From positions 1-64,000 of IMG/VR virus record IMGVR_UViG_3300032326_001208: 64,000 bases of DNA. One strand, written 5' to 3'. How positions within the stretch are numbered: the stretch's first letter is position 1; each line of letters begins with the position of its first letter. This DNA is from a virus. Lineage: Duplodnaviria; Heunggongvirae; Uroviricota; Caudoviricetes. Below the pieces are notes generated by a model. The model was not told the DNA's origin and ran no database searches. It saw only the letters and a program-made list of their open reading frames with translations. This document shows positions 4-47,772 of this stretch, in pieces. Position numbers and translations under genes: made by a program.

Positions 4-75
4 GCTCTGTTCGACTAAGGGTTAGGTCACATCCCTTTCACGGATGTAATACGGGTTCGAATCCCGTACAGAGTA
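4..75 (+). tRNA. tRNA-Glu (anticodon TTC)
   Basis: Cloverleaf by eye: acceptor gctctgt/acagagt, anticodon stem catcc/ggatg with loop ctttcac, T-arm acggg-ttcgaat-cccgt. Lies at the window edge. Confidence 0.65.
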
Positions 76-176
76 CAAAGGTTGATTGGGATAAGCATAT
101 TAGTATGCATAAATCGGTTAGAAATGCCAATCATAAAAGTAGATGTCCACGCACCCATCTTCTACTTTCCTATCTT

Positions 177-249
177 GCTTCCAAAGCATTGCAGGCGATG
201 CGCTTGACTTGTAATCAAGATAATTCGGTTCGATTCCGGATGGAAGCTC
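177..249 (+). tRNA. tRNA-Thr (anticodon TGT)
   Basis: Acceptor gcttcca/tggaagc, anticodon arm cttga-cttgtaa-tcaag, T-loop ggttcgattcc. Confidence 0.75.
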
Positions 250-323
250 AAACTAATTTATTGAGGACTTTGTCAACCTACGCATGACGTGGTGGTGCAA
301 TTTAAGATGAGTTGGTTTCAAAT

Positions 324-394
324 GGAGAGTTAGTTAATCGGTATAATGCTGCCTTGTCACGGCAGTGTGACGGGTTCGATTCCCGTACTTTCCG
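324..394 (+). tRNA. tRNA-Asp (anticodon GTC)
   Basis: Acceptor ggagagt/actttcc (two G-U pairs), anticodon arm ctgcc-ttgtcac-ggcag, T-arm acggg-ttcgatt-cccgt. Confidence 0.7.
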
Positions 395-500
395 CAAGTA
401 GTAAGAGCAGACGAAAGTTTAGTTTATGGTCAGTGCGCATATTCCATAGACGGCCGGTAGAAACATTGAGATATTAGACGTAGTATCTCTCTTACTATAT

Positions 501-572
501 GGGCTTGTAGTTAAATGGATATAACTTCTCACTTCTAATGAGATATTCGTGGTTCGATTCCACGCGAGCCTA
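501..572 (+). tRNA. tRNA-Arg (anticodon TCT)
   Basis: Acceptor gggcttg/cgagcct, anticodon arm tctca-cttctaa-tgaga, T-arm cgtgg-ttcgatt-ccacg, CCA encoded after the discriminator. Confidence 0.7.
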
Positions 573-590
573 CCAAATAAAAAATAAGTT

Positions 591-1040
591 ATGAGAAAAG
601 TTATTCTTTTATTCTTAACTGTTATTATGTTTATTCCGCATAATATGATTAACTCCGAAATGAGTGAGGAAGAAGTTGCGGACATAATGATAGAAAAGAA
701 AAAGATACCTTATGATGTAGTTACGGTTACAACATATACGGTATCCGCTGGTGAAACCGATTCAACTCCCCTAATTACTGCAAGTGGTTATAAGTTGGAC
801 AGTGTTAATCCTAAAAAGCAAAAGGTAATTGCAATTAGTAGAGACTTAAAACGAAAGTATAAGTTTGGACAAAAAGTAAGAGTGAAGGGTGCTGGAAAAT
901 TAGATGGTGTATATACTGTCAGAGATTTGATGGCAAAGAGGTGGACAAAAAAGATTGATATATTAATTAATCCTGATGAGAGTGGAACTAAAATCAGAAG
1001 GGTTAAAATATATAATATAAAAAAGGATTTGGATAATTAA
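591..1040 (+). CDS. Secreted 3D-domain protein (peptidoglycan-binding / MltA-like double-psi beta-barrel)
   Basis: N-terminal signal-like hydrophobic segment. TVTTYTVSAGETDSTPLITASG ... VIAISRD ... GQKVRVKG ... DLMAKRW matches the 3D (YocH/YabE/MltA C-terminal) domain pattern. Confidence 0.6.
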   Translation: MRKVILLFLTVIMFIPHNMINSEMSEEEVADIMIEKKKIPYDVVTVTTYTVSAGETDSTPLITASGYKLDSVNPKKQKVIAISRDLKRKYKFGQKVRVKGAGKLDGVYTVRDLMAKRWTKKIDILINPDESGTKIRRVKIYNIKKDLDN

Positions 1041-1084
1041 ATTATTATTCGTATCTTTGTATAGTTATTAAAAATAGTATCGCC

Positions 1085-1170
1085 GCCGGGGTGATGGAAT
1101 GGTAGACATGAAAGACTTAAAATCTTTTGAGCAGAAATCGCTCGTGTGGGTTCGAATCCCATCCCCGGTA
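1085..1170 (+). tRNA. tRNA-Leu (anticodon TAA), type II with long variable arm
   Basis: Acceptor gccgggg/ccccggt, anticodon arm aaaga-cttaaaa-tcttt, variable arm gagcagaaatcgctc, T-arm gtggg-ttcgaat-cccat. Confidence 0.75.
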
Positions 1171-1181
1171 CGTCAATTAAT

Positions 1182-1763
1182 ATGTTGAAAGAATTTAAAT
1201 TAAATTGGACATTAGATTCTGATTTAGGAGAAGTTGATGATAAGGATAAAATCATATATCAGTTAATTGAAGAAACTGCTAATGATTCCAATTCATCTAA
1301 ATTTAGAGAAGATGTTACTAAATGGATTGTGGGATTGGAAACATCTGAAAGTAAAAGAGGATATGATGATGATTTTACTGCAATAGAAGTTAAACCGCAA
1401 AATTATAATGGTGGTGTTAAGTTATGTGGTAAGGGTGCATTTACTGATTTTACTTGGAAACGTGACGAAAAATATTTTAATGATAACGTTAAAATGCTTA
1501 TATCAGGATTTTGTTATGGTAAACTTGTATTCATAATTGAGTTTCCTTATGAAAGCTTGAGAGAAGTAATACACAAATATCTACATAATCAATTACCAAA
1601 TGGTGATGAGAAAAATAGATATGTTAGAACTATAATATTCACATACAAAACTTGGATGGAAAACTCATATGAAATAAAATATGTAACTCCAAACCTTGAA
1701 AAGTATAGATATTGCATAGTAAAAGATTTTTATAAGTTGTTGGAAGATAATTTGGGGAAGTAG
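1182..1763 (+). CDS. Hypothetical protein
   Basis: 194-aa ORF; start moved to the first ATG downstream of tRNA-Leu. Its stop codon overlaps the first nucleotides of tRNA-Ala. Confidence 0.5.
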   Translation: MLKEFKLNWTLDSDLGEVDDKDKIIYQLIEETANDSNSSKFREDVTKWIVGLETSESKRGYDDDFTAIEVKPQNYNGGVKLCGKGAFTDFTWKRDEKYFNDNVKMLISGFCYGKLVFIIEFPYESLREVIHKYLHNQLPNGDEKNRYVRTIIFTYKTWMENSYEIKYVTPNLEKYRYCIVKDFYKLLEDNLGK

Positions 1764-1827
1764 CTCAGTTGGCTAGAGCACCTGCCTTGCACGCAGGGGG
1801 TCATGGGTTCGACTCCCTTCTTCTCCA
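1754..1827 (+). tRNA. tRNA-Ala (anticodon TGC)
   Basis: ggggaagtagctcagttggctagagc D-arm, anticodon arm cctgc-cttgcac-gcagg, T-loop gggttcgactccc, acceptor 3' cttctcc. Confidence 0.75.
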
Positions 1828-1831
1828 CATT

Positions 1832-1906
1832 GGACCTGTAGCTCAGTTGGTTAGTAGCACCTGACTCATAATCAGGGGGTCATAGGTTCAAGTCCTATCG
1901 GGTCCA
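1832..1906 (+). tRNA. tRNA-Met (anticodon CAT; could be an Ile2/lysidine type)
   Basis: ggacctgtagctcagttggttagtagc, anticodon arm cctga-ctcataa-tcagg, T-loop ggttcaagtcc, acceptor 3' cgggtcc. Confidence 0.7.
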
Positions 1907-1913
1907 CAAACAA

Positions 1914-1986
1914 GCGGAAGTAGCTCATTTGGTAGAGCATGACCTTGCCAAGGTCAGGGTGGCCAGTTCGAGCCTGGTCTTCCGCT
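1914..1986 (+). tRNA. tRNA-Gly (anticodon GCC)
   Basis: gcggaagtagctcatttggtagagc, anticodon arm tgacc-ttgccaa-ggtca, T-loop agttcgagcct, acceptor 3' cttccgc then tcca. Confidence 0.75.
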
Positions 1987-2044
1987 CCAAAGCAGATAAA
2001 ATGTGTAGTAACTGCAGGAATGATATCTTCCACTACACTCTTTA

Positions 2045-2117
2045 GCGAGAGTAGCTCATTTGGTAGAGCGGTAGCCTTCCAAGCTTCAGGTGGCCAGTTC
2101 GAGCCTGGTCTCTCGCT
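2045..2117 (+). tRNA. tRNA-Gly (anticodon TCC)
   Basis: Paralogue of the previous gene (gcgagagtagctcatttggtagagc), anticodon loop cttccaa with one stem mismatch, identical T-arm, acceptor 3' ctctcgc. Confidence 0.65.
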
Positions 2118-2254
2118 CAAGTGGGCCTGTTAGTATTAGGCCGCAAGAAGAATAGATGTTTTTCAATTACTAAACACTCAAGTACCCATACCGCTAGCGA
2201 TGGGCTAAGTAAGATACAATTTCGCACTGCGGGAAGTAGAATGCTTGAGATTAT

Positions 2255-2326
2255 TGCCCGATGATGTAATGGTTAGCATCACAGATTTTGATTCTGTTCG
2301 TATTGGTTCGAGTCCAGTTCGGGTAA
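2255..2326 (+). tRNA. tRNA-Gln (anticodon TTG)
   Basis: Acceptor tgcccga/tcgggta, anticodon arm acaga-ttttgat-tctgt, T-arm attgg-ttcgagt-ccagt. Confidence 0.6.
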
Positions 2327-2345
2327 CTCATTAAAAACAAATGTT

Positions 2346-2615
2346 ATGGGAATTTTTTGGACTTATTATTTGATTTGTTTGGCGTATTGTTTATATATGT
2401 CATTCAAGAAATGGAATAGAGATATGATGGCAGGTGGATTAGGCATTTCGCCTGGTTTAGATACATTGGCTCTATTACTCATGTGTTGGATATTAGCACC
2501 AGTAGATATATTCTTAACTTGGGTTAGGGTATATAAAGAAGCTGAAGAAGCTAGAAGAAAACATGCTGATACTGAAAATAGTTTAGACGGTAAAAGCGAA
2601 GAGAAAGTATTCTAA
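2346..2615 (+). CDS. Hypothetical small membrane protein
   Basis: 89-aa ORF with two hydrophobic segments, between tRNA genes. Confidence 0.4.
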   Translation: MGIFWTYYLICLAYCLYMSFKKWNRDMMAGGLGISPGLDTLALLLMCWILAPVDIFLTWVRVYKEAEEARRKHADTENSLDGKSEEKVF

Positions 2616-2632
2616 TTATTAGAGTACTTATT

Positions 2633-2718
2633 GGAGAGATGGCAGAGTTGGTCTATCGCGCTTGACTTGAAATCAAGTGTACTGCAAGGTACCGTGGGTT
2701 CGAATCCTACTCTCTCCG
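2633..2718 (+). tRNA. tRNA-Ser (anticodon TGA), type II
   Basis: Acceptor ggagaga/tctctcc, anticodon arm cttga-cttgaaa-tcaag, long variable arm, T-arm gtggg-ttcgaat-cctac. Confidence 0.75.
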
Positions 2719-2731
2719 CATATATATTATT

Positions 2732-3265
2732 ATGAAAGTTATATTATTTGTTGCATTAGAAAATGAGTTTCCAAAGGAAAACGCACCAGACGGTGTTAAA
2801 GTTGTTTATACTGGTGTTGGAAAAGTAAATGCGGCTATAAAAGCAACTGAAACTCTTAAAGATTTAGACCCCAAAGATGTAGTAGTTATAAACTACGGAA
2901 GTGCGGGTGGGCATGCCGTTATGGTTGGTAACCTATTTAAGTGTAAAACATTTGTCCAAAACGATATGGATGCCAGACCATTTGCAGATAAAACAATTAC
3001 ACCATTTGATAATGAAATAGTAATGGGTAATATTGATTTCAATGGATTGGGATATAATATATGTTATACACAAGACCATTTTCAAACCACACCATCTGTA
3101 ATATGTGATATGGAAGCATACTCAATTGCAAAGGTATGTAAGATTTATGGATTTGATTTTACAGCTTATAAGTATGTAAGTGATAATGGTAATCCTGATG
3201 ATTGGGAAGCTAATCACAATAAAGGAATTGAATTATTTTTAAAATCGTTACAAAATATGCCCTGA
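2732..3265 (+). CDS. MTA/SAH-nucleosidase-like protein (PNP_UDP_1 fold), short form
   Basis: TGVGKVNAA ... INYGSAGG ... DMEAYSIAKVC ... YVSDNG aligns with the Pfs/MtnN motifs SGIGKVAAA, NTGSAGG, EMEATAIAHVC and RAISDVAD. Confidence 0.65.
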   Translation: MKVILFVALENEFPKENAPDGVKVVYTGVGKVNAAIKATETLKDLDPKDVVVINYGSAGGHAVMVGNLFKCKTFVQNDMDARPFADKTITPFDNEIVMGNIDFNGLGYNICYTQDHFQTTPSVICDMEAYSIAKVCKIYGFDFTAYKYVSDNGNPDDWEANHNKGIELFLKSLQNMP

Positions 3266-3339
3266 TGGTGGAACGGTAGACACGTCAGTTTTAGGAACTG
3301 ATATCGCGAGGTGTGAGAGTTCGAGTCTCTCTTGGGGTA
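3259..3339 (+). tRNA. tRNA-Leu (anticodon TAG), type II; weak acceptor stem
   Basis: D-arm GTG-GAACGGTAGA-CAC is the typical tRNA-Leu pattern. Anticodon arm tcagt-tttagga-actga, T-arm gagag-ttcgagt-ctctc. Acceptor gccctga/ttggggt has three G-U pairs, and the variable arm is poorly paired. Confidence 0.5.
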
Positions 3340-3355
3340 CAAACAACTTATTAAT

Positions 3356-4055: not shown

Positions 4056-4595
4056 ATGCAAATTTTTCAAACAAGAAACGAGTTAATTGATACACTTCCA
4101 AAAGGAATATCATGTGTTGAGTTGGGAGTTTTTAAATCCGAATTTTCAGATGAAATTATTAGTAGAATGCAACCATCATCTTTATATTTAGTTGATATAT
4201 GGGATGGTAGTATGGCATCTGGTGATAAAGATGGTATTAATGTTATCCATATTCCCGATATGGAAGAAGTTTATAATTTTATTTTAAAAAAATATAATGA
4301 TGATTCTAAAATAAATGTTGTAAGAAAACCAAGTAAAGAATTTTTAAAATCATTTACCGATGATAGATTTGATTTTATATATGTTGATGCAGACCATTCA
4401 TATACAGCGGTTAAAAATGATTTGATTTTATCTATGAATAAATTAAAAAATGGAGGATATTTGGCAGGACATGATTACATACCTAACTATGAAGTTAGAT
4501 ATGCCGTAGATGATTTTTGTAAAGAATATGGGCAAGAAATAATTGCTATAACAAAAGATGGGTGTCCATCATTTTTAATACAAATTAAAAAGTAA
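4056..4595 (+). CDS. Class I SAM-dependent methyltransferase (TylF/Methyltransf_24-like)
   Basis: ELGVFKSEFS (glycine-rich SAM loop) and FIYVDADHSYTAVKNDL match the Methyltransf_24 DxDH signature. Confidence 0.6.
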   Translation: MQIFQTRNELIDTLPKGISCVELGVFKSEFSDEIISRMQPSSLYLVDIWDGSMASGDKDGINVIHIPDMEEVYNFILKKYNDDSKINVVRKPSKEFLKSFTDDRFDFIYVDADHSYTAVKNDLILSMNKLKNGGYLAGHDYIPNYEVRYAVDDFCKEYGQEIIAITKDGCPSFLIQIKK

Positions 4596-5395
4596 TGGCT
4601 AATATACATCATATAACATTTGCTACCGGTAATAGTAGAGTTACGGGTTTACCATATGCAGATACACAAAAATTAATGGTTGATTCTATACAATCTCAAA
4701 CTAACAGAAAAGTAATTCACCATACATTTGACTTGGAAAAATTAAAACAACAAAGTTGGTATCAAAGAGTGGCCGAATATCCAACAAAGTTTCCTGACCC
4801 CTGGGGTAGAGATGGTTTGTATTGTGCATATAAAGTATTTATTGCAGAGGAATTGATGGAAAGAATAGACGATGGTGATTTTGTATATTATACAGATAGT
4901 TCAGCTTATTTTAGAGAACCATTTCAACAAAATATAGATAGATTGTTTGATTATGTAGAGTATAACGGACATGCATGTGGTTCAGCTGGGAATGATTTTA
5001 AACATAATAGTTTTGGATGTTGTGATAAAAAAATTGTGTGGGATAGAATTTGGCCGGAATTAAATGATAAATATGGTTGGATGATGGGAAGGCCTCATAT
5101 ACTAGCTTCTTGGTATTGTTTTCAAAAAAATCCACAAAGTGTAAAGTTTATAAAAGAATGGGCACATTATTTCACCGATGAAATTGATGGTAAACCATTG
5201 TGTACATTTCATCATACTGTTGACCAAAGTATTTTTAATATATTAGTTTACAAATATGGGATGCGAGTTTTTTTCAATAATACACATCATGACCATAATA
5301 AAAATCACAATAACGTTCATAGACAATTAAATTTAGAACCAAATAGTGATATTGAAAATTTAAAAAAGTGGTTTTATGACCCTAATAATCTATGA
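4595..5395 (+). CDS. Hypothetical protein within the sugar-modification cluster
   Basis: 266-aa ORF; ATGA start/stop overlap with the upstream gene; no recognised motif. Confidence 0.5.
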   Translation: MANIHHITFATGNSRVTGLPYADTQKLMVDSIQSQTNRKVIHHTFDLEKLKQQSWYQRVAEYPTKFPDPWGRDGLYCAYKVFIAEELMERIDDGDFVYYTDSSAYFREPFQQNIDRLFDYVEYNGHACGSAGNDFKHNSFGCCDKKIVWDRIWPELNDKYGWMMGRPHILASWYCFQKNPQSVKFIKEWAHYFTDEIDGKPLCTFHHTVDQSIFNILVYKYGMRVFFNNTHHDHNKNHNNVHRQLNLEPNSDIENLKKWFYDPNNL

Positions 5396-5823
5396 GTAAA
5401 ATACTATATACAGGCGGAACTTTTGACATATTGCATTACGGGCATATGAATTTTTTAAGACAATGTTCTAAAATAGCAGATAAAGTAATTGTGTCACTAA
5501 ACACAGACGAGTTTATTGAATATTATAAAGGGAAACCGCCAATTATGACTTACGAAGAACGAAAGAAATCTTTGGAGTTTTGTAAGTTTGTAGATGAGGT
5601 TATTCCAAACATCGGGGGAGCTGATAGTAAACCATCAATAATGCAAGTTAAACCCGATATCATAGCAATTGGTGATGATTGGGCAAAGAAAGATTATTAT
5701 ACACAAATGCAATTCACACAGGATTGGCTGGATGAAAATGATATAGTATTAGTTTACTTAGCATACACCAGAGGAATTAGTACAACTGACATTAAAAAAA
5801 GAATAACAAATGGAACAATATAA
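5392..5823 (+). CDS. Glycerol-3-phosphate cytidylyltransferase-like (TagD family nucleotidyltransferase)
   Basis: YTGGTFDILHYGH (HxGH) ... SLNTDEF ... FVDEVIP ... IGDDW ... RGISTTDIKKRI aligns along its length with B. subtilis TagD. Confidence 0.8.
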   Translation: MSKILYTGGTFDILHYGHMNFLRQCSKIADKVIVSLNTDEFIEYYKGKPPIMTYEERKKSLEFCKFVDEVIPNIGGADSKPSIMQVKPDIIAIGDDWAKKDYYTQMQFTQDWLDENDIVLVYLAYTRGISTTDIKKRITNGTI

Positions 5824-6622
5824 AAATACATTAGATTACATTAATAAGTTTACATATACTAAGCCAAAAATAGGATTAGTGTTAGGTTCGGGATTGGGAG
5901 ATGTTGCCAACGATATAGATATTACGGCTACAATTCCATATAAAGATATTCCTGGTTTTATTGCACCAACGATTGAAGGTCATAAAGGCAATTTGATATT
6001 TGGTTATTTGAATGATGTACCGGTTGTAGCACTTCAGGGTAGAAATCATTACTACGAAGGATATACAATGGAGCAAATTACATACCCAATACGGATACTT
6101 AAAATGTTAGGTATAGAAAGATTAATAACATCAAATGCAACCGGTGGTATGAACCCTAATTTTGAAATTGGCGATGTTATGTTTGTAAATGACCACATTA
6201 ATCTAATGGGTGATAACCCGTTGATAGGGCCAAACGATGATTCAATGGGCCCTCGTTTTTTAGATGTTAGTACGGCATACGATAAAGAAATGATTGAAGT
6301 TGCAAAACAATGTAGTAGTGGTATTCGTACACATGAAGGAGTATTGATAGCAGTATCCGGTCCAAACTATGAAACGCCAGCAGAGTATAGATATATGAGT
6401 ATAATAGGTGGAGATGCGGTTGGGATGTCAACTATACCTGAAGTATTAGTTGCCAGACATATGGGGGTTAAAGTATTCTCAATGTCTTTGATTACTGATT
6501 TAGGAGTTGCAGGTAAGATAGTAGAAATAACGCACGAAGAAGTGCAAAGAGTAGCAAATGAAAGTGCAGATAAAATGAGTTTAATAGTAAAACACATAGT
6601 ATCTCATTTTGGTAAAAAATAA
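5810..6622 (+). CDS. Purine nucleoside phosphorylase (trimeric PunA/PNP family)
   Basis: GLVLGSGLG ... GFIAPTIEGHKGNLIFG ... VVALQGRNHYYEG ... TSNATGG ... GMSTIPE are canonical PNP-I motifs. Confidence 0.8.
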   Translation: MEQYKNTLDYINKFTYTKPKIGLVLGSGLGDVANDIDITATIPYKDIPGFIAPTIEGHKGNLIFGYLNDVPVVALQGRNHYYEGYTMEQITYPIRILKMLGIERLITSNATGGMNPNFEIGDVMFVNDHINLMGDNPLIGPNDDSMGPRFLDVSTAYDKEMIEVAKQCSSGIRTHEGVLIAVSGPNYETPAEYRYMSIIGGDAVGMSTIPEVLVARHMGVKVFSMSLITDLGVAGKIVEITHEEVQRVANESADKMSLIVKHIVSHFGKK

Positions 6623-6627
6623 AATAT

Positions 6628-7083
6628 ATGAAGTACAAAAAATTGTATGGTAAAGAAGAATTTGAACTTATCCCTTATGTTAAAAATTATTTGGAAAACA
6701 ATGATGGAATTGAAATTCTTATTGGATGCGATTCCCAAAACTTTGCAGATAAAACGATATATGCAGTTGTTGTGGCGTTGTACACTACCGGAAAAGGTGC
6801 ACATGTACTTTATAGAAGATGGAAAGCGGATAGAGAATTTACCCGTTCAGTTAGATTATTGAATGAAGTTTGGTACGCAATTGAAACCGCTGAATTCTTA
6901 AAAGAGGCTGGTATTCCAAAACCAAAGTGGATTGATATAGATTTAAATCCAGACCCACGCTTTAAATCAAATGAAGTATTTAGACAAGCGGTTGGTTTAG
7001 TAGAAGGTATGGGGTATGAAGTTAGATATAAAACATTAGGTCCAATCGCAACTTATGCGGCTGACCATTTAGTTAAAATATAA
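6628..7083 (+). CDS. DUF458 / YkuK-like protein (RNase-H-like fold)
   Basis: ILIGCDSQ ... KTIYAVVVAL ... GKGAHVLYRR ... IDIDLNPD pattern resembles YkuK-family proteins as recalled; not checked against any database. Confidence 0.4.
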   Translation: MKYKKLYGKEEFELIPYVKNYLENNDGIEILIGCDSQNFADKTIYAVVVALYTTGKGAHVLYRRWKADREFTRSVRLLNEVWYAIETAEFLKEAGIPKPKWIDIDLNPDPRFKSNEVFRQAVGLVEGMGYEVRYKTLGPIATYAADHLVKI

Positions 7084-7084
7084 T

Positions 7085-7810
7085 ATGAAAGTAGCAATTG
7101 TATTAACAGGACATTGTAGAGATTTTGAATTAGTATTTGCTAATTTAGAAGAACACTTATTTAAAAAATATAATGCAGATGTTTATTTTAATACTTGGAA
7201 TGTCAATCAACATTCTATCAATAGTGTTGGTAAGTTTAATTTAGCATATCATCCAGTTGATAAAGATTATATAGTATCAAAGTTACAACCATATCTTAAA
7301 AATTATAATTTTGAATCTTGGGACGATTATCAAAAAAATAGATTTCCTAATATTTCATTATTAGATAGAGAAGATGATGTCTTTAAAGTAAATCCAAGAG
7401 CAATATATCACGGAACATATTATATTGAAAGAATAAGAGACCAATGGTGGATGGTTAAGAACGCTTGGAGTTTGATAGAAAATCCATATCAGTATGATAT
7501 TATAATGAGAGTTAGATTTGATATGCTGTTTCATCACATTGAACTTAAAAAAGCTAAATTTGTAGTTCCAAAGAGTGATATTGAATTTTATAAAATAGAA
7601 ACACATTGGAGCGATTATTTTGCATATGGTGAACCTGATGCTATGTACAAATATTTTCATATGTTTAACTCAATAGAAAATATGTACGTTGACTATAATA
7701 TAGATATTACACATGCGGAACAAATGCACGAATGGTATATGAAAGAGTATGGCAACAAAGTACAATCTTTTATTGATTCGGAAATTGTATATGAAAAAGT
7801 TAAAAAATAA
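7085..7810 (+). CDS. Hypothetical protein, paralogue of the next gene (possible LPS/glycan transferase)
   Basis: 241-aa ORF. Shares an N-terminal pattern (VLTGHCRDF ... YFNTWN) with 7813..8529 (IIIQGRCEDE ... ISTWN). Confidence 0.5.
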   Translation: MKVAIVLTGHCRDFELVFANLEEHLFKKYNADVYFNTWNVNQHSINSVGKFNLAYHPVDKDYIVSKLQPYLKNYNFESWDDYQKNRFPNISLLDREDDVFKVNPRAIYHGTYYIERIRDQWWMVKNAWSLIENPYQYDIIMRVRFDMLFHHIELKKAKFVVPKSDIEFYKIETHWSDYFAYGEPDAMYKYFHMFNSIENMYVDYNIDITHAEQMHEWYMKEYGNKVQSFIDSEIVYEKVKK

Positions 7811-7812
7811 AT

Positions 7813-8529
7813 ATGATAGAAGATTTAACTATAATAATACAGGGAAGATGTGAAGATGAGACATTAAAAATGTGGTTTGAAAATTACTCAAATCATAAAG
7901 TTATCATATCAACTTGGAATGATTACACTATACCATTTGAAATACCATCAAATTGGAAAGTAATAAAATCAGATGGGATTGATTTTGAATTTGATGGAAT
8001 GGGTCATATGCAAAACTTGGAATATCAAATAATATCAACTTTAAATGGATTGAATTTGACTGAAACAAAATATGCGATTAAAGTTAGGGGTGATGAATAT
8101 TGGACAGGAGTGGATAAGATGTATTATTCATTAAAATCCGATGAAACTCTATTATGTAGTTCTATGTTTTTTAGACCATTAGATTGTCCATATCCATTTC
8201 ACATAGGAGACCATATAATATGTGGTACGGTTGAAAATATGAAAATCATGTTTAATAAAACGAAAGAAAACCTAATTTCTAATTTTAGAAATAATAATAC
8301 ACCTGAATCAAATCTTGGCATGGCATATATTCAAGAAAAAGAAAACTATTCAATTGAAAAAATGTTTGATATATGTAACACTATATCTTGGGAAAGTTAT
8401 ATGAAAAAATGGTTTGATATATTTGATATAAATCAACTTAAACCGTATATTGCAACACAAAAAGACCGCGGGATTCGGGTTCATTATAGAAGTGATTTCA
8501 CAAATACAGGATGTATAACTGAATTTTAA
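7813..8529 (+). CDS. Hypothetical protein, paralogue of the previous gene
   Basis: 238-aa ORF; similar N-terminal motif. Confidence 0.5.
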   Translation: MIEDLTIIIQGRCEDETLKMWFENYSNHKVIISTWNDYTIPFEIPSNWKVIKSDGIDFEFDGMGHMQNLEYQIISTLNGLNLTETKYAIKVRGDEYWTGVDKMYYSLKSDETLLCSSMFFRPLDCPYPFHIGDHIICGTVENMKIMFNKTKENLISNFRNNNTPESNLGMAYIQEKENYSIEKMFDICNTISWESYMKKWFDIFDINQLKPYIATQKDRGIRVHYRSDFTNTGCITEF

Positions 8530-8540
8530 ACAAAAAATTT

Positions 8541-8750
8541 ATGCCAGAAAATAAAACAAAAATTAATGATGGACACTATTTAGAATTAATGGACAGATTG
8601 CATGTTATAATGTGTACCCTAAATGACCATTGTGTAGAACATCCATTAACGGAAACTGATAGTGAACTAAAATTTCAATTGGAATATGCATTAGGAAGAT
8701 TATGGGATGTATATCAGTATGTTGGTAATATGGAACAAACTAAAAAATAA
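8541..8750 (+). CDS. Hypothetical protein
   Basis: 69-aa ORF in the co-directional tiling. Confidence 0.4.
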   Translation: MPENKTKINDGHYLELMDRLHVIMCTLNDHCVEHPLTETDSELKFQLEYALGRLWDVYQYVGNMEQTKK

Positions 8751-8755
8751 AATAT

Positions 8756-10291
8756 ATGAAAATTGTTATAGTAGGTGGTGGAACAGCAGGTTGGTTGACT
8801 GCGGCATTCTTTGCAAATCAAAACCAATTATACAAAAAGGATAGATTAGAAGAAGTAGATGTTACTGTAATTGAAAGTTCTGATATACCAATTATCGGGG
8901 CCGGAGAAGGAACTACGGCATTAATGCAACAAATGGTAGCTACTCGTTTTTCTGCTTTGAAAAAAACCGAATTTAACTTTTTTAAAGGGTCACTTGCAGT
9001 GCCAAAATACGGAATACGTTTTAAAGATTGGAATGGGGTTGGTACTGAATTTTTAAGTCCTATACAACCTTCCGAAACTGCAGGATATAACGTAGATAGC
9101 GAATTTCTTGCTTCCTGTATGCAGGGTAATTTTTATGATTCATCCATAGCGGGACACTTTATGTCGAAAGGACTATCGGATTACCATATCAACGGTAAAG
9201 AAAATATGGGTATACATGGTTATCACTTTGATGCTCATAAAGTTGGTGAATATTTTAAAAGTGTTTGTATAGAAAACGGAGTAAAGCACATAGATGCCAA
9301 AGTTGATGATGTTAATATAAATCCAATAACAGGTGAATGTGATAGTGTAAAATTAGAAGGTAAGTTAATTCCGTTAGAGGCAGATTTTTGGATAGATTGT
9401 ACCGGATTTCATAGGAAGTTAATTAATAAAATGGGTGCAAAATGGATAAGTTATTCAAATGAACTTCCTGTAAATTCCGCACTACCTTATATACACAAAT
9501 ACGAAAAAGGACCTGAAGAAGCTAAATTAGAAACTTTGGCTTGGTCAATGCCGAATGGTTGGATGTGGCAAATACCAACGCAAGAAAGATATGGATGTGG
9601 TTATGTATATTGTGATAGATTTGTAAGTGATGATAAGGCGCTTGAAGAATTGGAAAAAACAACTGGTAGAAAAATACAACCGATAAGAAAATTAAGTTTT
9701 GATCCAGGTAGATTAGATAAATTTTGGATTAAAAATGTTGTAGCAATAGGGTTGTCATCTTCATTTTTAGAACCACTTCAAGCAACTTCAATCCATACAA
9801 CGTTATTGCAAGTGGATACGTTGTTCAGTAATTTCTTTTCTTTAAATAAAAAAGAATTTTTATTAGAACAAAATTTAAAACGATATAACAATATTATGGG
9901 AACTCTGGTAGATGAGTATAAAGACTTAATACGAATCCATTATCATAATAAACGAAATGATTCGGAATTTTGGAAGTTTTGTAATAACGAATTACCAATG
10001 AGTGATTTTGTAAGAGATATCATAGAGACTTGTCAATATAGAAGTCCTTCTACATTTGATTTTTCTAGTTACAATGGTTCATCTGGTTGGGGTGTTTGGT
10101 GTTGGACATTGTATGGATTGGAAACTCTAACCAAACCCGCAGTATTTAATACATTGAAAAAATATTCTCTTGTACATTACACAAAACACATGCACAATAA
10201 AATTATGCAGCGTGCGGATACGGGAGCTAAGTTATTACAAACACAGGAAGAATTTATAAAGGATTTAATGTCAGGAAAATTTTATAGATAA
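8756..10291 (+). CDS. FAD-dependent halogenase (tryptophan-halogenase family)
   Basis: IVIVGGGTAGW dinucleotide-binding motif, GAGEGT, and the flavin-dependent-halogenase signature WxWxIP (NGWMWQIP); about 510 aa as in PrnA/RebH. Confidence 0.75.
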   Translation: MKIVIVGGGTAGWLTAAFFANQNQLYKKDRLEEVDVTVIESSDIPIIGAGEGTTALMQQMVATRFSALKKTEFNFFKGSLAVPKYGIRFKDWNGVGTEFLSPIQPSETAGYNVDSEFLASCMQGNFYDSSIAGHFMSKGLSDYHINGKENMGIHGYHFDAHKVGEYFKSVCIENGVKHIDAKVDDVNINPITGECDSVKLEGKLIPLEADFWIDCTGFHRKLINKMGAKWISYSNELPVNSALPYIHKYEKGPEEAKLETLAWSMPNGWMWQIPTQERYGCGYVYCDRFVSDDKALEELEKTTGRKIQPIRKLSFDPGRLDKFWIKNVVAIGLSSSFLEPLQATSIHTTLLQVDTLFSNFFSLNKKEFLLEQNLKRYNNIMGTLVDEYKDLIRIHYHNKRNDSEFWKFCNNELPMSDFVRDIIETCQYRSPSTFDFSSYNGSSGWGVWCWTLYGLETLTKPAVFNTLKKYSLVHYTKHMHNKIMQRADTGAKLLQTQEEFIKDLMSGKFYR

Positions 10292-10722
10292 TGAATACAA
10301 ATATACAAAAGGTTATAGACCATTTAGAAATGAATGTAAAAAGCAAAATTGCACCATCACCGATTCACGGGATAGGTGTATTTGCAATTAAAGATATAAA
10401 AAAAGGAGAGCAAGTATTTCCACAATGGGATGGAGAAACGGGTGTGTATATGCTTCCCAAAGATAAATTAAAAAATTTACCAGAAGGTGTACAAGACCTT
10501 TTGGATATGTATTTTATAAACGAAGATTGTGGTTATAAATTATTTAGATTATTTAAAGGAATAAATTTCATTTGTCATTCCGTATCGTATTGTAATTCCG
10601 CATATCCAAATGAAGAAAATATTAATATAACAACCGAAGGAGTTGCAACTAGGGATATAATAGCAGGTGAAGAAATATTAGAGTGGTACACTGCTAATTT
10701 AGATTTGGAAAATTCAAAATAG
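10291..10722 (+). CDS. SET-domain protein (putative lysine methyltransferase)
   Basis: GIGVFAIKDIKKGEQVF ... ICHSVSYCNSAYPNEE ... IIAGEEILEWY resembles the SET motifs GxG, NHSCxPN and ELxxDY. Confidence 0.5.
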   Translation: MNTNIQKVIDHLEMNVKSKIAPSPIHGIGVFAIKDIKKGEQVFPQWDGETGVYMLPKDKLKNLPEGVQDLLDMYFINEDCGYKLFRLFKGINFICHSVSYCNSAYPNEENINITTEGVATRDIIAGEEILEWYTANLDLENSK

Positions 10723-10758: not shown

Positions 10759-11085
10759 ATGGGAGAACATCACGTAACATTACAAATTGGGGAAGATAAT
10801 TTAGTAATAGGAATTAATCCTGCATTTACTACAATTAAAGATGACGTTCAATATGATAATTGTGTAATTTGTGGAAAGAAAACACAATATAAAACAAGCA
10901 CACATATTGATATAAGAACTGGATATGTAGAAGGAGTTGGACAACTTTGTGGTATTTGTTATACCAAAGGAAGTTCAGCGGGTAGAGAACTTATTTCAAT
11001 ACCTAAATACCTAGTTGAACAATATCCTAATGATATGGAATTGGGTGGAGCTGTAAGGCAATATTATTGGGAAAATTATGGATAA
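10759..11085 (+). CDS. Hypothetical Cys-rich protein
   Basis: 108-aa ORF; CVICGKK ... CGICY suggests a zinc ribbon. Confidence 0.45.
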   Translation: MGEHHVTLQIGEDNLVIGINPAFTTIKDDVQYDNCVICGKKTQYKTSTHIDIRTGYVEGVGQLCGICYTKGSSAGRELISIPKYLVEQYPNDMELGGAVRQYYWENYG

Positions 11086-11265
11086 TTCATAACTCATTGA
11101 TTTTCAACACATTCATAACTCATTGATTTTCAATGGGTTATTTTTTGCCCAAAAATTCTTGATTGAGAATCAATTAGTTACGCTTTTAGGGGTAAAAATA
11201 GTCCCTTAAATATTTGGTAGATTGGTAACTATTTTGTAGTTTTAGGTATAATAAAAATTGAAAAT
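11086..11265. promoter_or_regulatory. Operator-rich intergenic region plus promoter
   Basis: Two direct copies of ttcataactcattgattttcaa, then the inverted element ttcttgattgagaatcaattagttacg, then atttgg-N20-ttttgtagttttaggtataataaaa directly upstream of the ATG. Confidence 0.55.
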
Positions 11266-28993: not shown

Positions 28994-29390
28994 AGATAAA
29001 AAGAAAAAACCCGATTTGGTTGTATGGGATGAGCAACGTGGTTACTATCCAAGAGAATTAACCTATGGTAGTAATAACGGAGCACCTGCTATTAAATTAG
29101 AAGATGTTGGTGGCTGGAAACAAATACAAGCTCAAAACGCTAATAAGATATTCACCAAAAAGTATGAGGAAATAAAAGATGAATTCAAAAAATTAGTGGA
29201 TGAAGTTAGTTGGAATGAATTTGTATATTCAGTAACTTACAACTTTATACCTGTAATAGGTGAAACATATTATCTATACGAAAAAAATGATGGTAGTCCA
29301 TTCCTTTCATTAATAGCACCTGATGAATGGAATATGAAATTTATAGGTGCAACAAGATTAGAATCCAATAACAAATGGATAAAGTTATGA
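28986..29390 (+). CDS. Hypothetical protein
   Basis: Trimmed to MSKDKKKK. Confidence 0.5.
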   Translation: MSKDKKKKPDLVVWDEQRGYYPRELTYGSNNGAPAIKLEDVGGWKQIQAQNANKIFTKKYEEIKDEFKKLVDEVSWNEFVYSVTYNFIPVIGETYYLYEKNDGSPFLSLIAPDEWNMKFIGATRLESNNKWIKL

Positions 29391-29953
29391 AAAATTTAAT
29401 AGTAATTGGCCACCCAAACAAAGATAGTTTTTGTACGAGTGGCATTGCAAAGACAATCAAAGAAACTCTTGAAAAAAATAAGCAAGAAGTATTTGTAATT
29501 GATTTGTATGCAGAAAACAAAACGTTTGAATTCCATAAAGATAAAGTTAGTGAATACAAACAATTAATTACTTGGGCTGATAAGATTTACTTCGTATCAC
29601 CAGTGTATTGGTTTAGATGTTCGCCGGCTATGGAATCATTCTTTGACCAAATCTTTACACCTGGATTTGCGTATAAGTTTACACCCGTTACAAAAGTGTA
29701 TGGATATCCAACTCCTTTGTTAAGTGACAAAAAAGTAAGAACTTATTTAACGCATGGTGCACCTGCTTTACCTGTTATGACACTTTATTTGAATTCAGTA
29801 AAGTTAAGATTGGTGATGGGTGTATATTCATTTGTGTTCGGTTGGTTCAAAACAAAGACAAGACAATTTTGGAGTGTGCCATTTGTTTCTCACAATGACA
29901 GATTAGTTTATTTGGAAAAAGTAAAAGAAGATGTTAAAAAAGATTTAAAGTAA
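29375..29953 (+). CDS. Flavodoxin-like NAD(P)H-dependent oxidoreductase (quinone-reductase family)
   Basis: LIVIGHPNKDSFCTSGIAKTIKETLEKNKQEVFVIDLY ... ADKIYFVSPVYWF matches the Flavodoxin_2 N-terminal pattern. Confidence 0.55.
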   Translation: MDKVMKNLIVIGHPNKDSFCTSGIAKTIKETLEKNKQEVFVIDLYAENKTFEFHKDKVSEYKQLITWADKIYFVSPVYWFRCSPAMESFFDQIFTPGFAYKFTPVTKVYGYPTPLLSDKKVRTYLTHGAPALPVMTLYLNSVKLRLVMGVYSFVFGWFKTKTRQFWSVPFVSHNDRLVYLEKVKEDVKKDLK

Positions 29954-30977: not shown

Positions 30978-31901
30978 ATGGAATCAATGAGTGAAAGATT
31001 TGCTCGTTTAGAAAAAGAGCGTGAAGAACAATTACAACAATATAAATTAGAACAACAATTAAAAATTAAAAAGATGACAAAGATTATCGGTGGTAGTATC
31101 GTTGGATTATTTCTAATGGTATTTTTATTTAAGTCTTGCGAAAGAATTGATGCAGGACACGTGGGTGTTAAAGTAAACCTTTATGGTGATAACAAAGGTG
31201 TAAGTGATGTGACTGAAGTGACTGGTATGGTATTCTATAATCCAATTACACATTCAATCTATGAGTTCCCTACATTCATTCAACACAAAGAATATACAGG
31301 TGAAAATTCATTTGTAGTAAATAGTAAAGATGGTAGTGAGTTTCACGTTTCACCAATCATTAACTATTCAGTAAAGAGAGAAAAAGTTCCATCAATCTTT
31401 GCTAAATATCGTAGAAGTTTGGACCAAATAGAAGAAGGGTTTTTGAAAACATCTGTATTTGACGCATTCAGATTAGCAACTAACAAATATACAGCCGATG
31501 AATTAATTGGTAATAGACAAGCATATGAAGTTGAGGTTCGTAGAATATTAGAAGGACAATTGTTAGCAGAAGGATTCATTGTTAATCAATTCACATCAAA
31601 TCTAGTGTATCCTGAAACGTTCAAAGCGGCAATTGAAGCTAAGAATAACGCAGTTCAAGCGGCATTAAGAGCTGAGAATGAAGTTAAAACCGCCGAAGCA
31701 CAAGCAAAGATTAAAGTAGCAACTGCGGAAGGTAACGCACAAGCATTACTTACATCGGCAAAAGCTGAAGCTGAGGCAAATAGAATGAAGCAACAAACAT
31801 TGACACCATTGCTTATTCAATTAGAGTATGTACAAAAGTGGGATGGTAAGTTACCAGTATATGGTGAAGTTCCACAACTATTTAGAAACATTCAAAAATA
31901 A
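30978..31901 (+). CDS. SPFH/band-7 (HflK/stomatin-like) membrane protein
   Basis: TM helix, then IDAGHVGVKV, then an Ala/Glu-rich coiled-coil tail (AENEVKTAEAQAKIKVATAEGNAQALLTSAKAEAEANR) typical of HflK/HflC. Confidence 0.7.
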   Translation: MESMSERFARLEKEREEQLQQYKLEQQLKIKKMTKIIGGSIVGLFLMVFLFKSCERIDAGHVGVKVNLYGDNKGVSDVTEVTGMVFYNPITHSIYEFPTFIQHKEYTGENSFVVNSKDGSEFHVSPIINYSVKREKVPSIFAKYRRSLDQIEEGFLKTSVFDAFRLATNKYTADELIGNRQAYEVEVRRILEGQLLAEGFIVNQFTSNLVYPETFKAAIEAKNNAVQAALRAENEVKTAEAQAKIKVATAEGNAQALLTSAKAEAEANRMKQQTLTPLLIQLEYVQKWDGKLPVYGEVPQLFRNIQK

Positions 31902-47099: not shown

Positions 47100-47448
47100 C
47101 AAAATAGGGGTTTCATAAGTGGTTGATTATCAATACGTTATAACTCGTTGATTATCAATATGTTAGGATTGGGGTGGGGTTTAGGGCTTGGATGTATTCG
47201 TATATATTCGTATTTTTGGGGTGTTTCTTGGGGTTATTTTTATCAGGTAGGGTTAAGATATGGACGAGGTGAAATAGGGGTTAAAATCGAACGGAAAGGG
47301 ACGAATATATAAAGTGTTGATTTTCAATGACTTATGTATGGGGTTAAAATATATCCATAATCGGTTGATTTCCAATCGAGAACTTTTAGGTAGAATTTGG
47401 TGGTCTCAATTAATTTTCGTAATTTTAGGTATAAAAGTTAAGTTAGAT
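47100..47448. promoter_or_regulatory. Operator repeats plus promoter
   Basis: gtggttgattatcaatacgttataactcgttgattatcaatatgtt; gtgttgattttcaatgacttatg; ggttgatttccaatcgag; then atttggtgg-N-ttttcgtaattttaggtataaaag. Confidence 0.5.
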
Positions 47449-47772
47449 ATGAGTAGAAAGAAACGTACAGATAGGAATCACATTATATACCTTATTACAA
47501 ATACCTTCAATGGTAACGAGTATATTGGTATTACGGCTTCAACCGGTCGAGCTTTCCTTCGTTCCGCAAAAGTTAGGTTACAAAAACATTTTAGTAGAGC
47601 GAGAAGGGAAAATTGGGATTGGAAGTTGTATATGGATATGGTGAACTACATTGATGATTTAGAATTGGTATATGAAGTATCGGTATTGGATGTAGTAAGA
47701 GGTAAAGAGGCCGCTCACATTAGAGAGATGGAGTTAGTTAAGAAACACAAACCCGCATTAAACACAAAGTAA
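47449..47772 (+). CDS. GIY-YIG nuclease domain protein (free-standing, 107 aa)
   Basis: HIIYLITNTFNGNEYIGIT ... R...KH ... E matches the GIY-YIG catalytic motif; trimmed to MSRKKRTD. Confidence 0.6.
   Translation: MSRKKRTDRNHIIYLITNTFNGNEYIGITASTGRAFLRSAKVRLQKHFSRARRENWDWKLYMDMVNYIDDLELVYEVSVLDVVRGKEAAHIREMELVKKHKPALNTK

Follow-up and report, generated by a model that had tools for sequence, protein, structure and literature searches.

A phage halogenase of the tryptophan halogenase family with glutamine at the catalytic glutamate position and an adjoining SET-domain gene

Introduction

Phages encode many flavin-dependent halogenases (FDHs), of which VirX1 from cyanophage Syn10 (PDB 6QGM) alone has been biochemically characterized (PMC8407142), and a native substrate is known for none. 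VirX1 forms a trimer with a wide open active site and prefers iodide over bromide and bromide over chloride. It accepts azaindoles and other heterocycles, and Trp is not used (PMC8407142). Halogenase genes are found in 20 of 153 cyanophage genomes (PMC10452541). In the cellular enzyme PyrH, Lys-75 has been named as the catalytic lysine (PMC4917012). Exchange of the catalytic glutamate for glutamine makes PrnA about 100-fold slower (E346Q; PMC5727139) and was reported to leave another FDH inactive (PMC8407142). A non-acidic residue at this position nevertheless has precedent, with Phe or Leu present in active FDHs, as captured by the Lewis motif FX[DE]PX[EFL] (PMC8407142). BrvH is annotated as a Trp halogenase but fails to convert Trp, and no natural substrate is known for it (PMC7754283). 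At the level of gene neighborhoods, Iyer et al. (2010) described JmjC-halogenase-SapC-TonB-receptor arrangements in alpha- and gamma-proteobacteria, in which one to three halogenases adjoin a JmjC/cupin or 2OG dioxygenase, SapC and a TonB-class receptor, together with hydroxylases and sulfotransferases (PMC2938197). Neighborhoods with one to three halogenases, dioxygenases, sulfotransferases and methyltransferases were read as tailoring metabolites or peptides (PMC2938197).

Here we analyze a halogenase gene located in a 64,000-nucleotide stretch of viral DNA (the window). As phage halogenases are already known, the gene is in itself fairly ordinary, and its distinctive features are a glutamine at the position of the catalytic glutamate and an adjoining SET-domain gene.

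Results

The original prediction had called a 511-aa, flavin-dependent halogenase of the tryptophan type, and we recovered exactly this open reading frame (Table 1), the antisense strand of which is dense in stop codons. The protein matches the Pfam family PF04820 (Trp_halogenase) over residues 2-430 (E=2.6e-88; 297 bits, cutoff 21) and the PHROG family 2928, 'tryptophan halogenase' (E=1.1e-97). NCBIfam contains no model for this protein, its matches to QhpG and CmlS being below threshold. A phmmer search against the PDB returned PyrH (2.6e-49), BrvH (PDB 6FRL, the second-best sequence match, 3e-49) and VirX1 (1.3e-41). Our AlphaFold2 model (pLDDT 92.4, pTM 0.90) has a two-module fold, in which a flavin monooxygenase-like box is joined to a C-terminal helical substrate module. 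In Foldseek searches the model superposes on Xcc4156 (PDB 6Y1W, the top fold match), PyrH, Thal and RebH with TM scores of 0.82-0.87 over about 520 columns. The top sequence and fold matches are halogenases throughout and viral monooxygenases score much more weakly, which disposes of the possibility, raised with the prediction, that the best match would be a non-halogenating FAD monooxygenase. The gene evolves under purifying selection (dN/dS 0.05-0.29 against relatives). These findings together confirm a real, well-conserved halogenase-family gene on a phage, for which the comparisons directly show the family and fold, the state of each motif, and the conservation, selection and synteny of the gene.

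Table 1. Coordinates of the halogenase, its motifs and other features in the window
Feature	Position	Strand	Remarks
Methyltransf_24	4056-4595	+	class-I methyltransferase, island gene
Variable cargo island upstream of halogenase	4056..8529	+	slot content varies among related contigs
Unknown island gene	4595-5395	+	
Cytidylyltransferase-like island gene	5392-5823	+	
Purine nucleoside phosphorylase	5810-6622	+	island gene
RNaseH_like PF04308	6628-7083	+	island gene
Conserved 241-aa protein, unknown	7085-7810	+	island gene
WavE-like island gene	7813-8529	+	
69-aa ORF directly upstream of halogenase	8541..8750	+	same position in nearest relatives (loci L009-L011); no Pfam match
Flavin-dependent halogenase, Trp-halogenase family, Gln342 variant	8756..10291	+	511 aa, ATG start
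GxGxxG FAD-binding motif (GGGTAG, residues 7-12)	8774..8791	+	G7, G8, G9, G12 invariant in 58 homologues
GEGT motif (residues 50-53)	8903..8914	+	G50, E51, G52 invariant; E51 aligns with PyrH E46
Codon of catalytic lysine Lys84 (PyrH K75 / PrnA K79)	9005..9007	+	from alignment to PyrH
WxWxIP motif (WMWQIP, residues 269-274)	9560..9577	+	W269, W271, P274 invariant
Tunnel/active-site motif FLEPLQATSIH (residues 337-347)	9764..9796	+	ungapped against PyrH FVEPLESTGIF
SET-domain gene, 143 aa	10291..10722	+	PF00856 E=3.1e-9, 37.6 bits (cutoff 22.4)
108-aa ORF downstream of SET	10759..11085	+	syntenic; a 101-108-aa gene follows SET in most loci
Terminator-like hairpin after 108-aa ORF	11115-11141		12 pairs and T-run
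Flavodoxin_2 / FMN_red NAD(P)H oxidoreductase, candidate reduced-flavin supplier	29375..29953	+	PF02525 E=6e-25, PF03358 E=5e-12
APRT gene	54164-54670		

We compared the phage protein to the characterized halogenases. PyrH, RebH, PrnA and Thal, its best sequence and fold matches (TM 0.85-0.86 for PyrH), share the catalytic lysine and a two-domain build in which the C-terminal domain is helical, but they are about 25% identical and differ in that the phage enzyme has Gln342 and the pair Ser101/Ile103 and lies outside a natural-product cluster. VirX1 and the cyanomyophage genes of PHROG 2928 have the PF04820 fold, GxGxxG, WxWxIP and the catalytic lysine in common with our protein, and they likewise reside in the accessory parts of large genomes of myovirus-like phages, where tandem copies are frequent. 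VirX1 is, however, just 25-29% identical. All three motifs on which the original prediction relied, GxGxxG, GEGT and WxWxIP, are present (Table 1), and 267 of the 268 family sequences have a lysine at the position of Lys84. The residues that sandwich the indole ring in PyrH, His-92 and Phe-94 (RebH His-109 and Phe-111), are replaced by Ser101 and Ile103, which sit in a clade-conserved [FY]-L-S-P-[IVL]-Q-P motif. In the C-terminal part, where Trp halogenases bind the amino-acid moiety of tryptophan, the alignment to PyrH and BrvH ends near residue 420, and the clade has its own conserved motif, G-W-G-V-W-x-W, at residues 441-450.

The prediction had further made a conserved active-site Lys/Glu pair its test, and the outcome is mixed. 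The lysine half is borne out by the alignment of Lys84 with PyrH K75, but the glutamate position (PrnA E346, PyrH E354, RebH E357) is occupied by Gln342 (codon CAA, 9779-9781). The surrounding F-L-E-P-L fits the Lewis motif, the final position being Gln rather than Glu, Phe or Leu, and the Ser and Gly of the PyrH sequence F-V-E-P-L-E-S-T-G correspond to Ala343 and Ser345. BrvH and Xcc4156 keep the glutamate, as does VirX1 (EPLES against EPLQA here), whereas the halogenase of the cultured cyanophage S-RIM44, 36% identical, also has Gln there. Gln342 is fixed in all of about 27 homologues that are at least 54% identical, within a motif that is otherwise invariant among them (F-[LV]-E-P-L-[QE]-A-T-S-I-H), and Glu is present in 80 of the 80 closest bacterial homologues. 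A tree of 268 sequences, rooted on the Glu-type bacterial sequences, requires at least six changes between Glu and Gln at this position. Gln and Glu forms occupy the same genomic slot, and sister clades keep Glu. A search for a compensating acidic residue that co-varies with Gln342 gave no convincing candidate; what it returned was phylogenetic signal and a link to Ser101. Judged from these comparisons, Gln342 is a selected state rather than a sign of decay, and one that arose repeatedly among phage halogenases. We do not take it to refute a halogenase, because it is stably inherited and selected and because the other catalytic motifs are invariant in the family.

The SET-domain gene that the original prediction had placed beside the halogenase lies immediately downstream (Table 1), its start overlapping the halogenase stop codon (TAATG), and this overlap is conserved across relatives. 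The SET protein has about 600 homologues of approximately 140 aa and evolves with a dN/dS of 0.02-0.24; among 50,697 phage records we found no homologue, and there was no PHROG match either. Its model is moderately confident and superposes poorly on solved SET domains; Foldseek nonetheless returned SET domains only, with vSET from Paramecium bursaria chlorella virus 1 ranking first at a TM score of just about 0.3. Both are small, single-domain viral SET proteins with a conserved GxG and GEE-x-L-E-W-Y, which in the phage protein are the invariant GIG (27-29) and GEEILEWY (126-133), but vSET comes from a eukaryotic virus rather than a bacteriophage. The canonical NH(S/C) motif reads C101-N102-S103 in our protein, and SET activity is uncertain for this reason. 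In every halogenase-bearing SET locus examined, the halogenase is found directly 5' of SET, at halogenase identities of 37-100%, and this order is retained even in a locus where the genes downstream of SET differ (L015). We considered an obligate coupling of the two genes and rejected it, as no halogenase lies within 6 kb in 5 of 10 SET loci from IMG/VR, where other cassettes fill the slot, and the SET gene is present in 0 of 70 deposited halogenase-bearing phages, so that the cultured halogenase phages differ from the window phage in having no SET neighbor. In another subclade (L187, L194), a distant SET homologue is located about 5 kb from the halogenase. Given that SET stands without a halogenase in half of these IMG/VR loci, we regard the halogenase as the last cassette of the upstream island rather than an obligate partner of SET.

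Across related contigs, the slot bounded by the RNaseH-like/241-aa genes and by SET differs in content. In relatives this island contains methyltransferases, a sulfotransferase, hydroxylases, sugar-nucleotide enzymes and one to three halogenases, and also WavE, GT29 and CMP-sugar synthetase genes; one locus has three halogenases and an Asp_Arg_Hydrox-like gene (L002), another 2OG oxygenases (L021). The halogenase is the final cassette of this hypervariable island of tailoring enzymes. Sugar/LPS-type modification genes, as originally proposed for this region, are indeed present: besides a class-I methyltransferase, the cluster has cytidylyltransferase-like and WavE-like genes, but it also includes genes for a purine nucleoside phosphorylase and an RNaseH-like protein. 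None of the scanned neighbors is a biosynthetic core gene (NRPS, PKS, indolocarbazole-type or precursor peptide). A sigma-70 promoter scan around the halogenase was uninformative, with fewer matches than in shuffled sequences, and a full Bacteroidota-type promoter was not found directly upstream of the gene.

The phage-like context seen in the original prediction is well founded. The window contains a tRNA array and phage genes in addition to the PHROG 2928 match, and syntenic viral contigs reach 274 kb. The source is a large uncultured phage of about 274 kb; a megablast search with the 10 kb around the halogenase against 50,697 phage records gave no match, and an exact copy of the protein was likewise missing from the contig index, so that the phage was placed through its relatives alone. 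Halogenases are not, as had been thought, unusual phage cargo, since 70 deposited phage records and more than 580 IMG/VR stretches contain homologues, and the family has its own PHROG and a characterized member in VirX1. Starts without Shine-Dalgarno sequences and TTTG/TAnnTTTG promoters are signals of the Bacteroidota type and indicate that the host probably belongs to this phylum, as had been guessed; this reading of the signals also rests on published work (PMC6847099). VirX1 and its cyanophage relatives, by contrast, come from phages of cyanobacteria. The best cellular homologues of the halogenase are alphaproteobacterial sequences of 61% GC, only 33-40% identical and of the Glu type throughout, and we therefore rejected a recent capture of the gene from a host.

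Discussion

From these comparisons we infer an activity, a halide preference, a substrate class and a physiological role for the phage enzyme. We think it probable that the gene encodes an accessory, cytoplasmic two-component FADH2-dependent halogenase, which acts on an activated aromatic substrate other than free tryptophan in the probable Bacteroidota host of this approximately 274-kb phage. Judging from the halogenase family, FADH2 would come from a flavin reductase of the host, or perhaps from the NQO-like flavoprotein of the phage, and would bind at the GxGxxG/GEGT site, where O2 and halide would yield hypohalous acid. The WxWxIP wall would separate substrate and flavin, and hypohalous acid would pass down a tunnel with FLEPLQATS in its lining and so reach Lys84. 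This lysine would direct the electrophilic attack that halogenates an electron-rich aromatic ring. Free L-tryptophan is most likely not the substrate, because the general-base glutamate is replaced by Gln342 and the His/Phe pair by Ser101/Ile103. An activated aromatic of the indole, phenol or pyrrole type is a likelier candidate, and bromide or iodide may be favored, as in BrvH and VirX1. The candidate flavin supplier belongs to the NQO/azoreductase class, with a weak match to Th-Fre (5lva), and is encoded 19 kb from the halogenase. A phage-specific flavin reductase partner is unsupported: the NQO-like gene is found in 70 IMG/VR loci irrespective of the presence of a halogenase and is thus not specifically linked to it. 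Because the island lies between a conserved RNaseH-like gene and the lineage-conserved SET gene, the halogenase probably contributes one exchangeable step by which the infecting phage has a metabolite or an envelope component of its host decorated.

A different role would follow if the Gln342 protein were attenuated or repurposed, for example as a flavin oxidase with free hypohalous acid or H2O2 as its product, or as a binding or regulatory protein, instead of a regioselective halogenase. The Gln form could indeed be a poor catalyst or none, given the slow PrnA E346Q and the inactive mutant of the other FDH; the 80 closest cellular relatives all retain Glu, and the phage protein differs at three positions (E to Q, S to A, G to S) from the signature motifs published for FDHs. 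Yet Lys84, E51, WxWxIP and the FAD motifs are invariant under purifying selection, the repeated Gln/Glu interchanges in one genomic slot suggest functional equivalence, and active FDHs tolerate Phe or Leu at this position, all of which makes loss or change of function unlikely in our view. The conserved TAATG overlap and the invariable order of the two genes could instead reflect a translationally coupled pair that modifies a protein or peptide, with the halogenase acting on Trp/Tyr and the SET protein methylating Lys in a protein of the host or phage. The nearest SET folds are protein lysine methyltransferases, and halogenase-rich neighborhoods have been read as peptide-modifying before (PMC2938197). 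One-base overlaps are, however, frequent in dense phage genomes, and no Trp-rich precursor peptide was found. Together with the SET loci devoid of a halogenase, the absence of SET from the deposited halogenase phages, the separated homologues in L187 and L194 and the CNS motif, this renders such a pair improbable.

A nucleobase, nucleoside or nucleic acid as the substrate, in the service of phage DNA or RNA modification, has a very faint chance of being correct. The phage encodes a purine nucleoside phosphorylase and an APRT, but these are ordinary salvage genes; the adjacent methyltransferase matches a PHROG labeled DNA methyltransferase, and VirX1 takes azaindoles and other heterocycles, but halogenation of this kind is without precedent and the gene is not linked to replication or DNA-modification genes. 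The sulfotransferase, WavE, GT29, CMP-sugar synthetase and hydroxylase genes in the islands of relatives are better suited to metabolite or glycan chemistry. That the halogenase and SET proteins form a post-translational modification pair acting on a host or virion protein, or that the Glu-to-Gln switch brings about a changed chemistry (in halide, nucleophile class or nucleobase), seems decidedly doubtful, and either, if true, would define a new role of flavin-dependent halogenases in phage infection. Returning to an accessory halogenase acting on an activated aromatic, the gene adds a well-populated, non-cyanophage lineage of halogenases, probably from phages that infect Bacteroidota. A natural Gln in place of the supposedly essential general base, with Glu retained in sister clades, represents a natural experiment on the role of this glutamate, and the Gln-type lineage offers candidate enzymes for biocatalysis on activated aromatics. 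What is gained for biology is modest, unless the connection with SET or with the tailoring island turns out to be functional.

The original prediction had also pointed to a pairing of halogenases with TonB-dependent receptors in Bacteroidetes. This pairing is a real theme, but it is one of alpha- and gamma-proteobacteria (PMC2938197), and the nearest cellular homologues of our protein are alphaproteobacterial. The phage shares some traits with these neighborhoods, as its relatives have as many as three halogenases together with an Asp/Arg-hydroxylase-like gene, and a TonB-receptor-like protein is encoded by the phage itself. The receptor gene is, however, located 48.6 kb from the halogenase, and the scanned neighbors in the window include neither a dioxygenase nor SapC. 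A tblastn search with the phage receptor revealed no related receptor within 6 kb of the halogenase in 80 bacterial loci. One of the two bacterial loci that we annotated, from Oceanicola, places the halogenase with an Opp-type ABC transporter and a GH4 glycosidase.

Identity of the Halogenase and Its Relatives

We compared the 511-aa ORF, proposed from its GxGxxG, GEGT, and WxWxIP motifs to be a tryptophan-type halogenase, with sequence and structure databases. All three motifs are present (GGGTAG, residues 7-12; GEGT, 50-53; WMWQIP, 269-274), and the opposite strand is full of stop codons. As anticipated, the Trp_halogenase profile PF04820 was recovered from Pfam (E = 2.6e-88, 297 bits against a cutoff of 21), and PHROG 2928 ("tryptophan halogenase") matched with E = 1.1e-97. 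Phmmer searches of the PDB returned PyrH (2.6e-49), BrvH (3e-49), RebH, PrnA, and Thal (all ~1e-46), and the cyanophage enzyme VirX1 (1.3e-41), so that membership in the halogenase family is supported far above chance level. An AlphaFold2 model calculated from an alignment of 58 homologues is confident (pLDDT 92.4, pTM 0.90) and superimposes over ~520 columns with Xcc4156, PyrH, Thal, RebH, PrnA, and Shewanella 2pyx with TM scores of 0.82-0.87. In a viral structure library, its top matches are phage halogenases, and viral FAD monooxygenases score far lower (TM ≤0.54, 10-12% identity). The best hit is therefore not a non-halogenating monooxygenase, which the original prediction had named as a refuting outcome. 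The gene is real, and its family-level classification as a halogenase is correct.

The original prediction regarded halogenases as unusual phage cargo, a view that our searches do not bear out. Seventy deposited phage records contain homologues (cyanomyophages, Pelagibacter phage HTVC008M, and Campylobacter phages), as do 20 of 153 surveyed cyanophage genomes (PMC10452541) and more than 580 IMG/VR stretches; two to four tandem copies are present in many of the latter. The query is a fresh member of an already known class of phage cargo, of which VirX1 from cyanophage Syn10 has been characterized biochemically as a broad-scope halogenase preferring iodide over bromide over chloride (PMC8407142). 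The closest cellular halogenases are alphaproteobacterial (33-40% identity). Immediate flanks were annotated for one cellular locus, that of Oceanicola granulosus HTCC2516, where an Opp-type oligopeptide ABC transporter and a GH4 glycosidase surround the halogenase in a nutrient-uptake setting, not a natural-product cluster.

A Natural Glutamine Variant of the Catalytic Site

Flavin-dependent halogenases (FDHs) contain a conserved catalytic Lys/Glu pair (K75/E354 in PyrH, K79/E357 in RebH) (PMC4917012). We aligned the query to PyrH in native numbering, in which K75 is the lysine of GGYKLGIRF. Lys-84 occupies the catalytic lysine position and is shared by all 119 close homologues and by 267 of the 268 sequences in a wider set. 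The glutamate position holds Gln-342 (codon CAA), in an ungapped alignment of FVEPLESTGIF in PyrH with FLEPLQATSIH in the query. Of the pair that the original prediction singled out, the lysine is thus present and the glutamate is not.

The corresponding E346Q mutant of PrnA is ~100-fold slower, whereas K79A abolishes the reaction (PMC5727139), and a review reports that a Glu-to-Gln mutant of another FDH is inactive (PMC8407142). A catalytically attenuated or repurposed query would fit these mutants, yet this reading is less well supported, since several observations argue that Gln-342 is not a product of decay. Glutamine is found in all ~27 database homologues with at least 54% identity, within the otherwise invariant F-[LV]-E-P-L-[QE]-A-T-S-I-H; both residues occur at 44-53% identity, and the overall tally is 67 Gln versus 52 Glu. 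The gene has dN/dS values of 0.05-0.29 against its relatives, and a rough neighbor-joining tree of 268 halogenases, rooted on bacterial homologues, places Glu at the root and requires at least six changes between Glu and Gln. EPLQATSIH is also present in the cultured cyanophage S-RIM44. Glutamate is retained in VirX1 and in the Pelagibacter phage HTVC008M enzyme, and all 80 closest cellular homologues carry FLEPLEAT. Gln-342 is one mechanistically interesting natural variant. The published FDH signature FX[DE]PX[EFL] permits Phe or Leu at the same position in active halogenases (PMC8407142), and a non-acidic residue would therefore fit the halogenation of substrates that are more strongly activated. 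We found no compensating acidic residue.

An accessory two-component FDH is the best-supported reading of the query, which appears from its sequence to possess the full flavin/HOX/Lys machinery. Reduced flavin would be provided by a host reductase or, conceivably, by the phage's own NQO/FMN_red-type protein, whose gene recurs at 64-99% identity in 70 IMG/VR loci irrespective of a halogenase and is thus a redox gene widespread in this group of phages. FADH2, O2, and halide would then yield hypohalous acid (HOX), which Lys-84 would steer onto an activated aromatic ring. A preference for bromide or iodide is plausible if BrvH and VirX1 are a guide. Ser-101 and Ile-103, located in a clade-specific [FY]-L-S-P-[IVL]-Q-P motif, align with the PyrH indole-stacking pair His-92/Phe-94, and Gln-342 co-occurs almost exclusively with Ser-101. 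Free L-tryptophan is an unlikely substrate, because the general base is replaced by Gln and the indole sandwich is absent. Nucleobase halogenation by the query is less well supported than the main reading.

The SET Neighbor and the Cargo Island

A SET-domain gene does lie beside the halogenase, as originally described, and its start overlaps the halogenase stop (TAATG), an arrangement kept in relatives. Its protein family is compact, numbering ~600 members of ~140 aa; no PHROG family could be assigned, and tblastn against 50,697 phage records gave zero matches. Selection constrains SET more strongly than the halogenase (dN/dS 0.02-0.24). Wherever a SET locus carries a halogenase (L001-L005, L009-L016, L018, L020, and L022/23), that gene borders SET directly, or, if there are two or three in tandem, the final one does; this would fit a protein-modifying pair. 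This reading is less well supported: a halogenase is missing from five of the ten IMG/VR SET loci, and their slot holds a cytidylyltransferase-RraA fusion with a GT29 sialyltransferase-like gene (L017 and L019), 2OG-Fe(II) oxygenases (L021), or small unknown genes. In another subclade (L187 and L194), ~5 kb separates the halogenase from a distant SET homologue, and no SET neighbor was found beside cultured-phage halogenases. The association with a phage SET gene is unreported and non-obligate.

The stretch from the conserved RNaseH-like and 241-aa genes to SET, with the halogenase as SET-proximal cassette, is a hypervariable cargo island, because upstream cassettes differ between relatives (Methyltransf_23/24, sulfotransferase, WavE, Asp/Arg-hydroxylase-like, AdoMet decarboxylase, and extra halogenases) and slot contents swap. 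Five relatives hold further striking cargo inside the island or close to it: cytochrome c with cupredoxin, a glutamyl-tRNA-reductase-like gene, AdoMet decarboxylase, a sulfotransferase, and a cytidylyltransferase-RraA fusion adjoining a GT29 sialyltransferase-like gene. Related viral contigs (L002, L015, L200, L228, L242, and others) commonly carry two to four divergent halogenase paralogues in tandem, 23-47% identical to the query; the three copies of the 255-kb contig L002 are all Gln-type. The WavE-like gene is shared with contig L011 and missing from L009, despite a 99.6%-identical halogenase there and on other JGI metagenome contigs such as L012. Against L009, dS is 0.03 for the halogenase and 0.15 for SET; against contigs L010 and L016 it is ~0.2 for the halogenase and ~0.13-0.16 for SET. 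The unequal dS values and the patchy WavE-like gene indicate recent recombination and cassette turnover, with a mosaic ancestry across the halogenase/SET junction.

Iyer et al. described proteobacterial loci with one to three Trp-halogenase homologues, JmjC/2OG dioxygenases, SapC, sulfotransferases, and a TonB-class receptor, as well as cyanophage Syn9 arrays of ten dioxygenases and two halogenases, and read such loci as tailoring amino-acid- or peptide-derived metabolites (PMC2938197). Our island has a similar flavor, and the phage also encodes a TonB-receptor-like protein; unlike in those loci, the receptor gene lies 48.6 kb from the halogenase behind its own predicted promoter. Scanning the window neighbors revealed neither SapC nor a dioxygenase.

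Phage Context and Host

The window is phage DNA (~32% GC), and the phage-like context noted earlier is substantiated by the tRNA array, a gene layout confined almost wholly to one strand, a PHROG 114 ATP-dependent DNA ligase, and PHROG 200 SPFH paralogues. IMGVR_UViG_3300034104_003795 (274 kb) shares SET (99% identity), the halogenase (94%), the reductase-like gene (99%), and the receptor-like gene (95%). A megablast of 10 kb around the halogenase revealed no deposited phage genome with similar DNA. The nearest ligase relatives (41-47% identity) come from an uncultured 595-kb phage and T4-like phages of Alphaproteobacteria.

Features of the window and of related loci
Feature	Position	Strand	Remarks
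tRNA array, 12 genes (Glu, Thr, Asp, Arg, Leu x2, Ala, Met, Gly x2, Gln, Ser)	4-3340		window start; interspersed small ORFs
Purine nucleoside phosphorylase	5810-6622	+	NCBIfam equivalog, 349 bits; purine salvage
WavE-like gene	7813-8529
Halogenase	8756-10291	+	ATG start, 511 aa
Gln-342 codon	9779-9781	+
SET-domain gene	10291-10722	+	143 aa; directly 3' of halogenase; PF00856, E = 3e-9
Flavodoxin_2/FMN_red NAD(P)H oxidoreductase, NQO/azoreductase class	29375-29953	+	candidate flavin reductase
Two tandem SPFH/Band-7 paralogues	30978-31901, 31926-32711	+	PHROG 200; directly 3' of promoter-like site 30576
GIY-YIG/SegE-like homing endonuclease	47314-47772	+	weak match, E ~1e-3
Adenine phosphoribosyltransferase	54164-54670	+	172 bits; purine salvage
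TonB-dependent-receptor-like protein	58899-62159	-	1086 aa; CarboxypepD_reg, Plug, outer-membrane beta-barrel
Promoter-like sites	1028, 18646, 22866, 30576, 41521, 43164, 44290, 44454, 54677	+
Promoter-like sites	57926-57957, 58835-58865, 62356-62387	-	last: Bacteroidota-type, directly upstream of receptor-like gene
Relatives' cargo in or near island	L009 2725-3977; L013 2204-3214; L003 9599-9994; L015 3565-4263; L017 4095-5988
Halogenase arrays of relatives	L002 7015-11533; L015 4971-8004
Oceanicola locus	L064 573-5983		bacterial

In the 20 nt upstream of 122 plus-strand ORF starts, Shine-Dalgarno sequences are depleted (GGA 7% versus 22% background), and adenine peaks at -12/-13, -6, and -3. 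Both features match the SD-less initiation described for Bacteroidota (PMC6847099) and would thus be a host signal. The composite TTTG-N18-22-TAnnTTTG occurs at 15 sites in the window (4.5±2.3 expected), 12 of which are intergenic, oriented toward the downstream gene, and share the extended consensus TTTGG, ~15 nt, then TTCGTAT[AC]TTTG. We take this composite to be the -33/-7 promoter type of Bacteroides and Flavobacterium, and the intergenic sites look like Bacteroidota-type promoters in use by the phage. Together with the receptor-like protein, these make three independent signals that point to a Bacteroidota host. An outer-membrane receptor encoded by a phage may be a more unusual find than the halogenase: its only full-length match among the 50,697 deposited phage records is a 6-kb human-faecal fragment (31% identity). 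Seven IMG/VR viral contigs have the gene with 82-95% identity, and two of them (274 and 207 kb) also carry the halogenase-SET pair.
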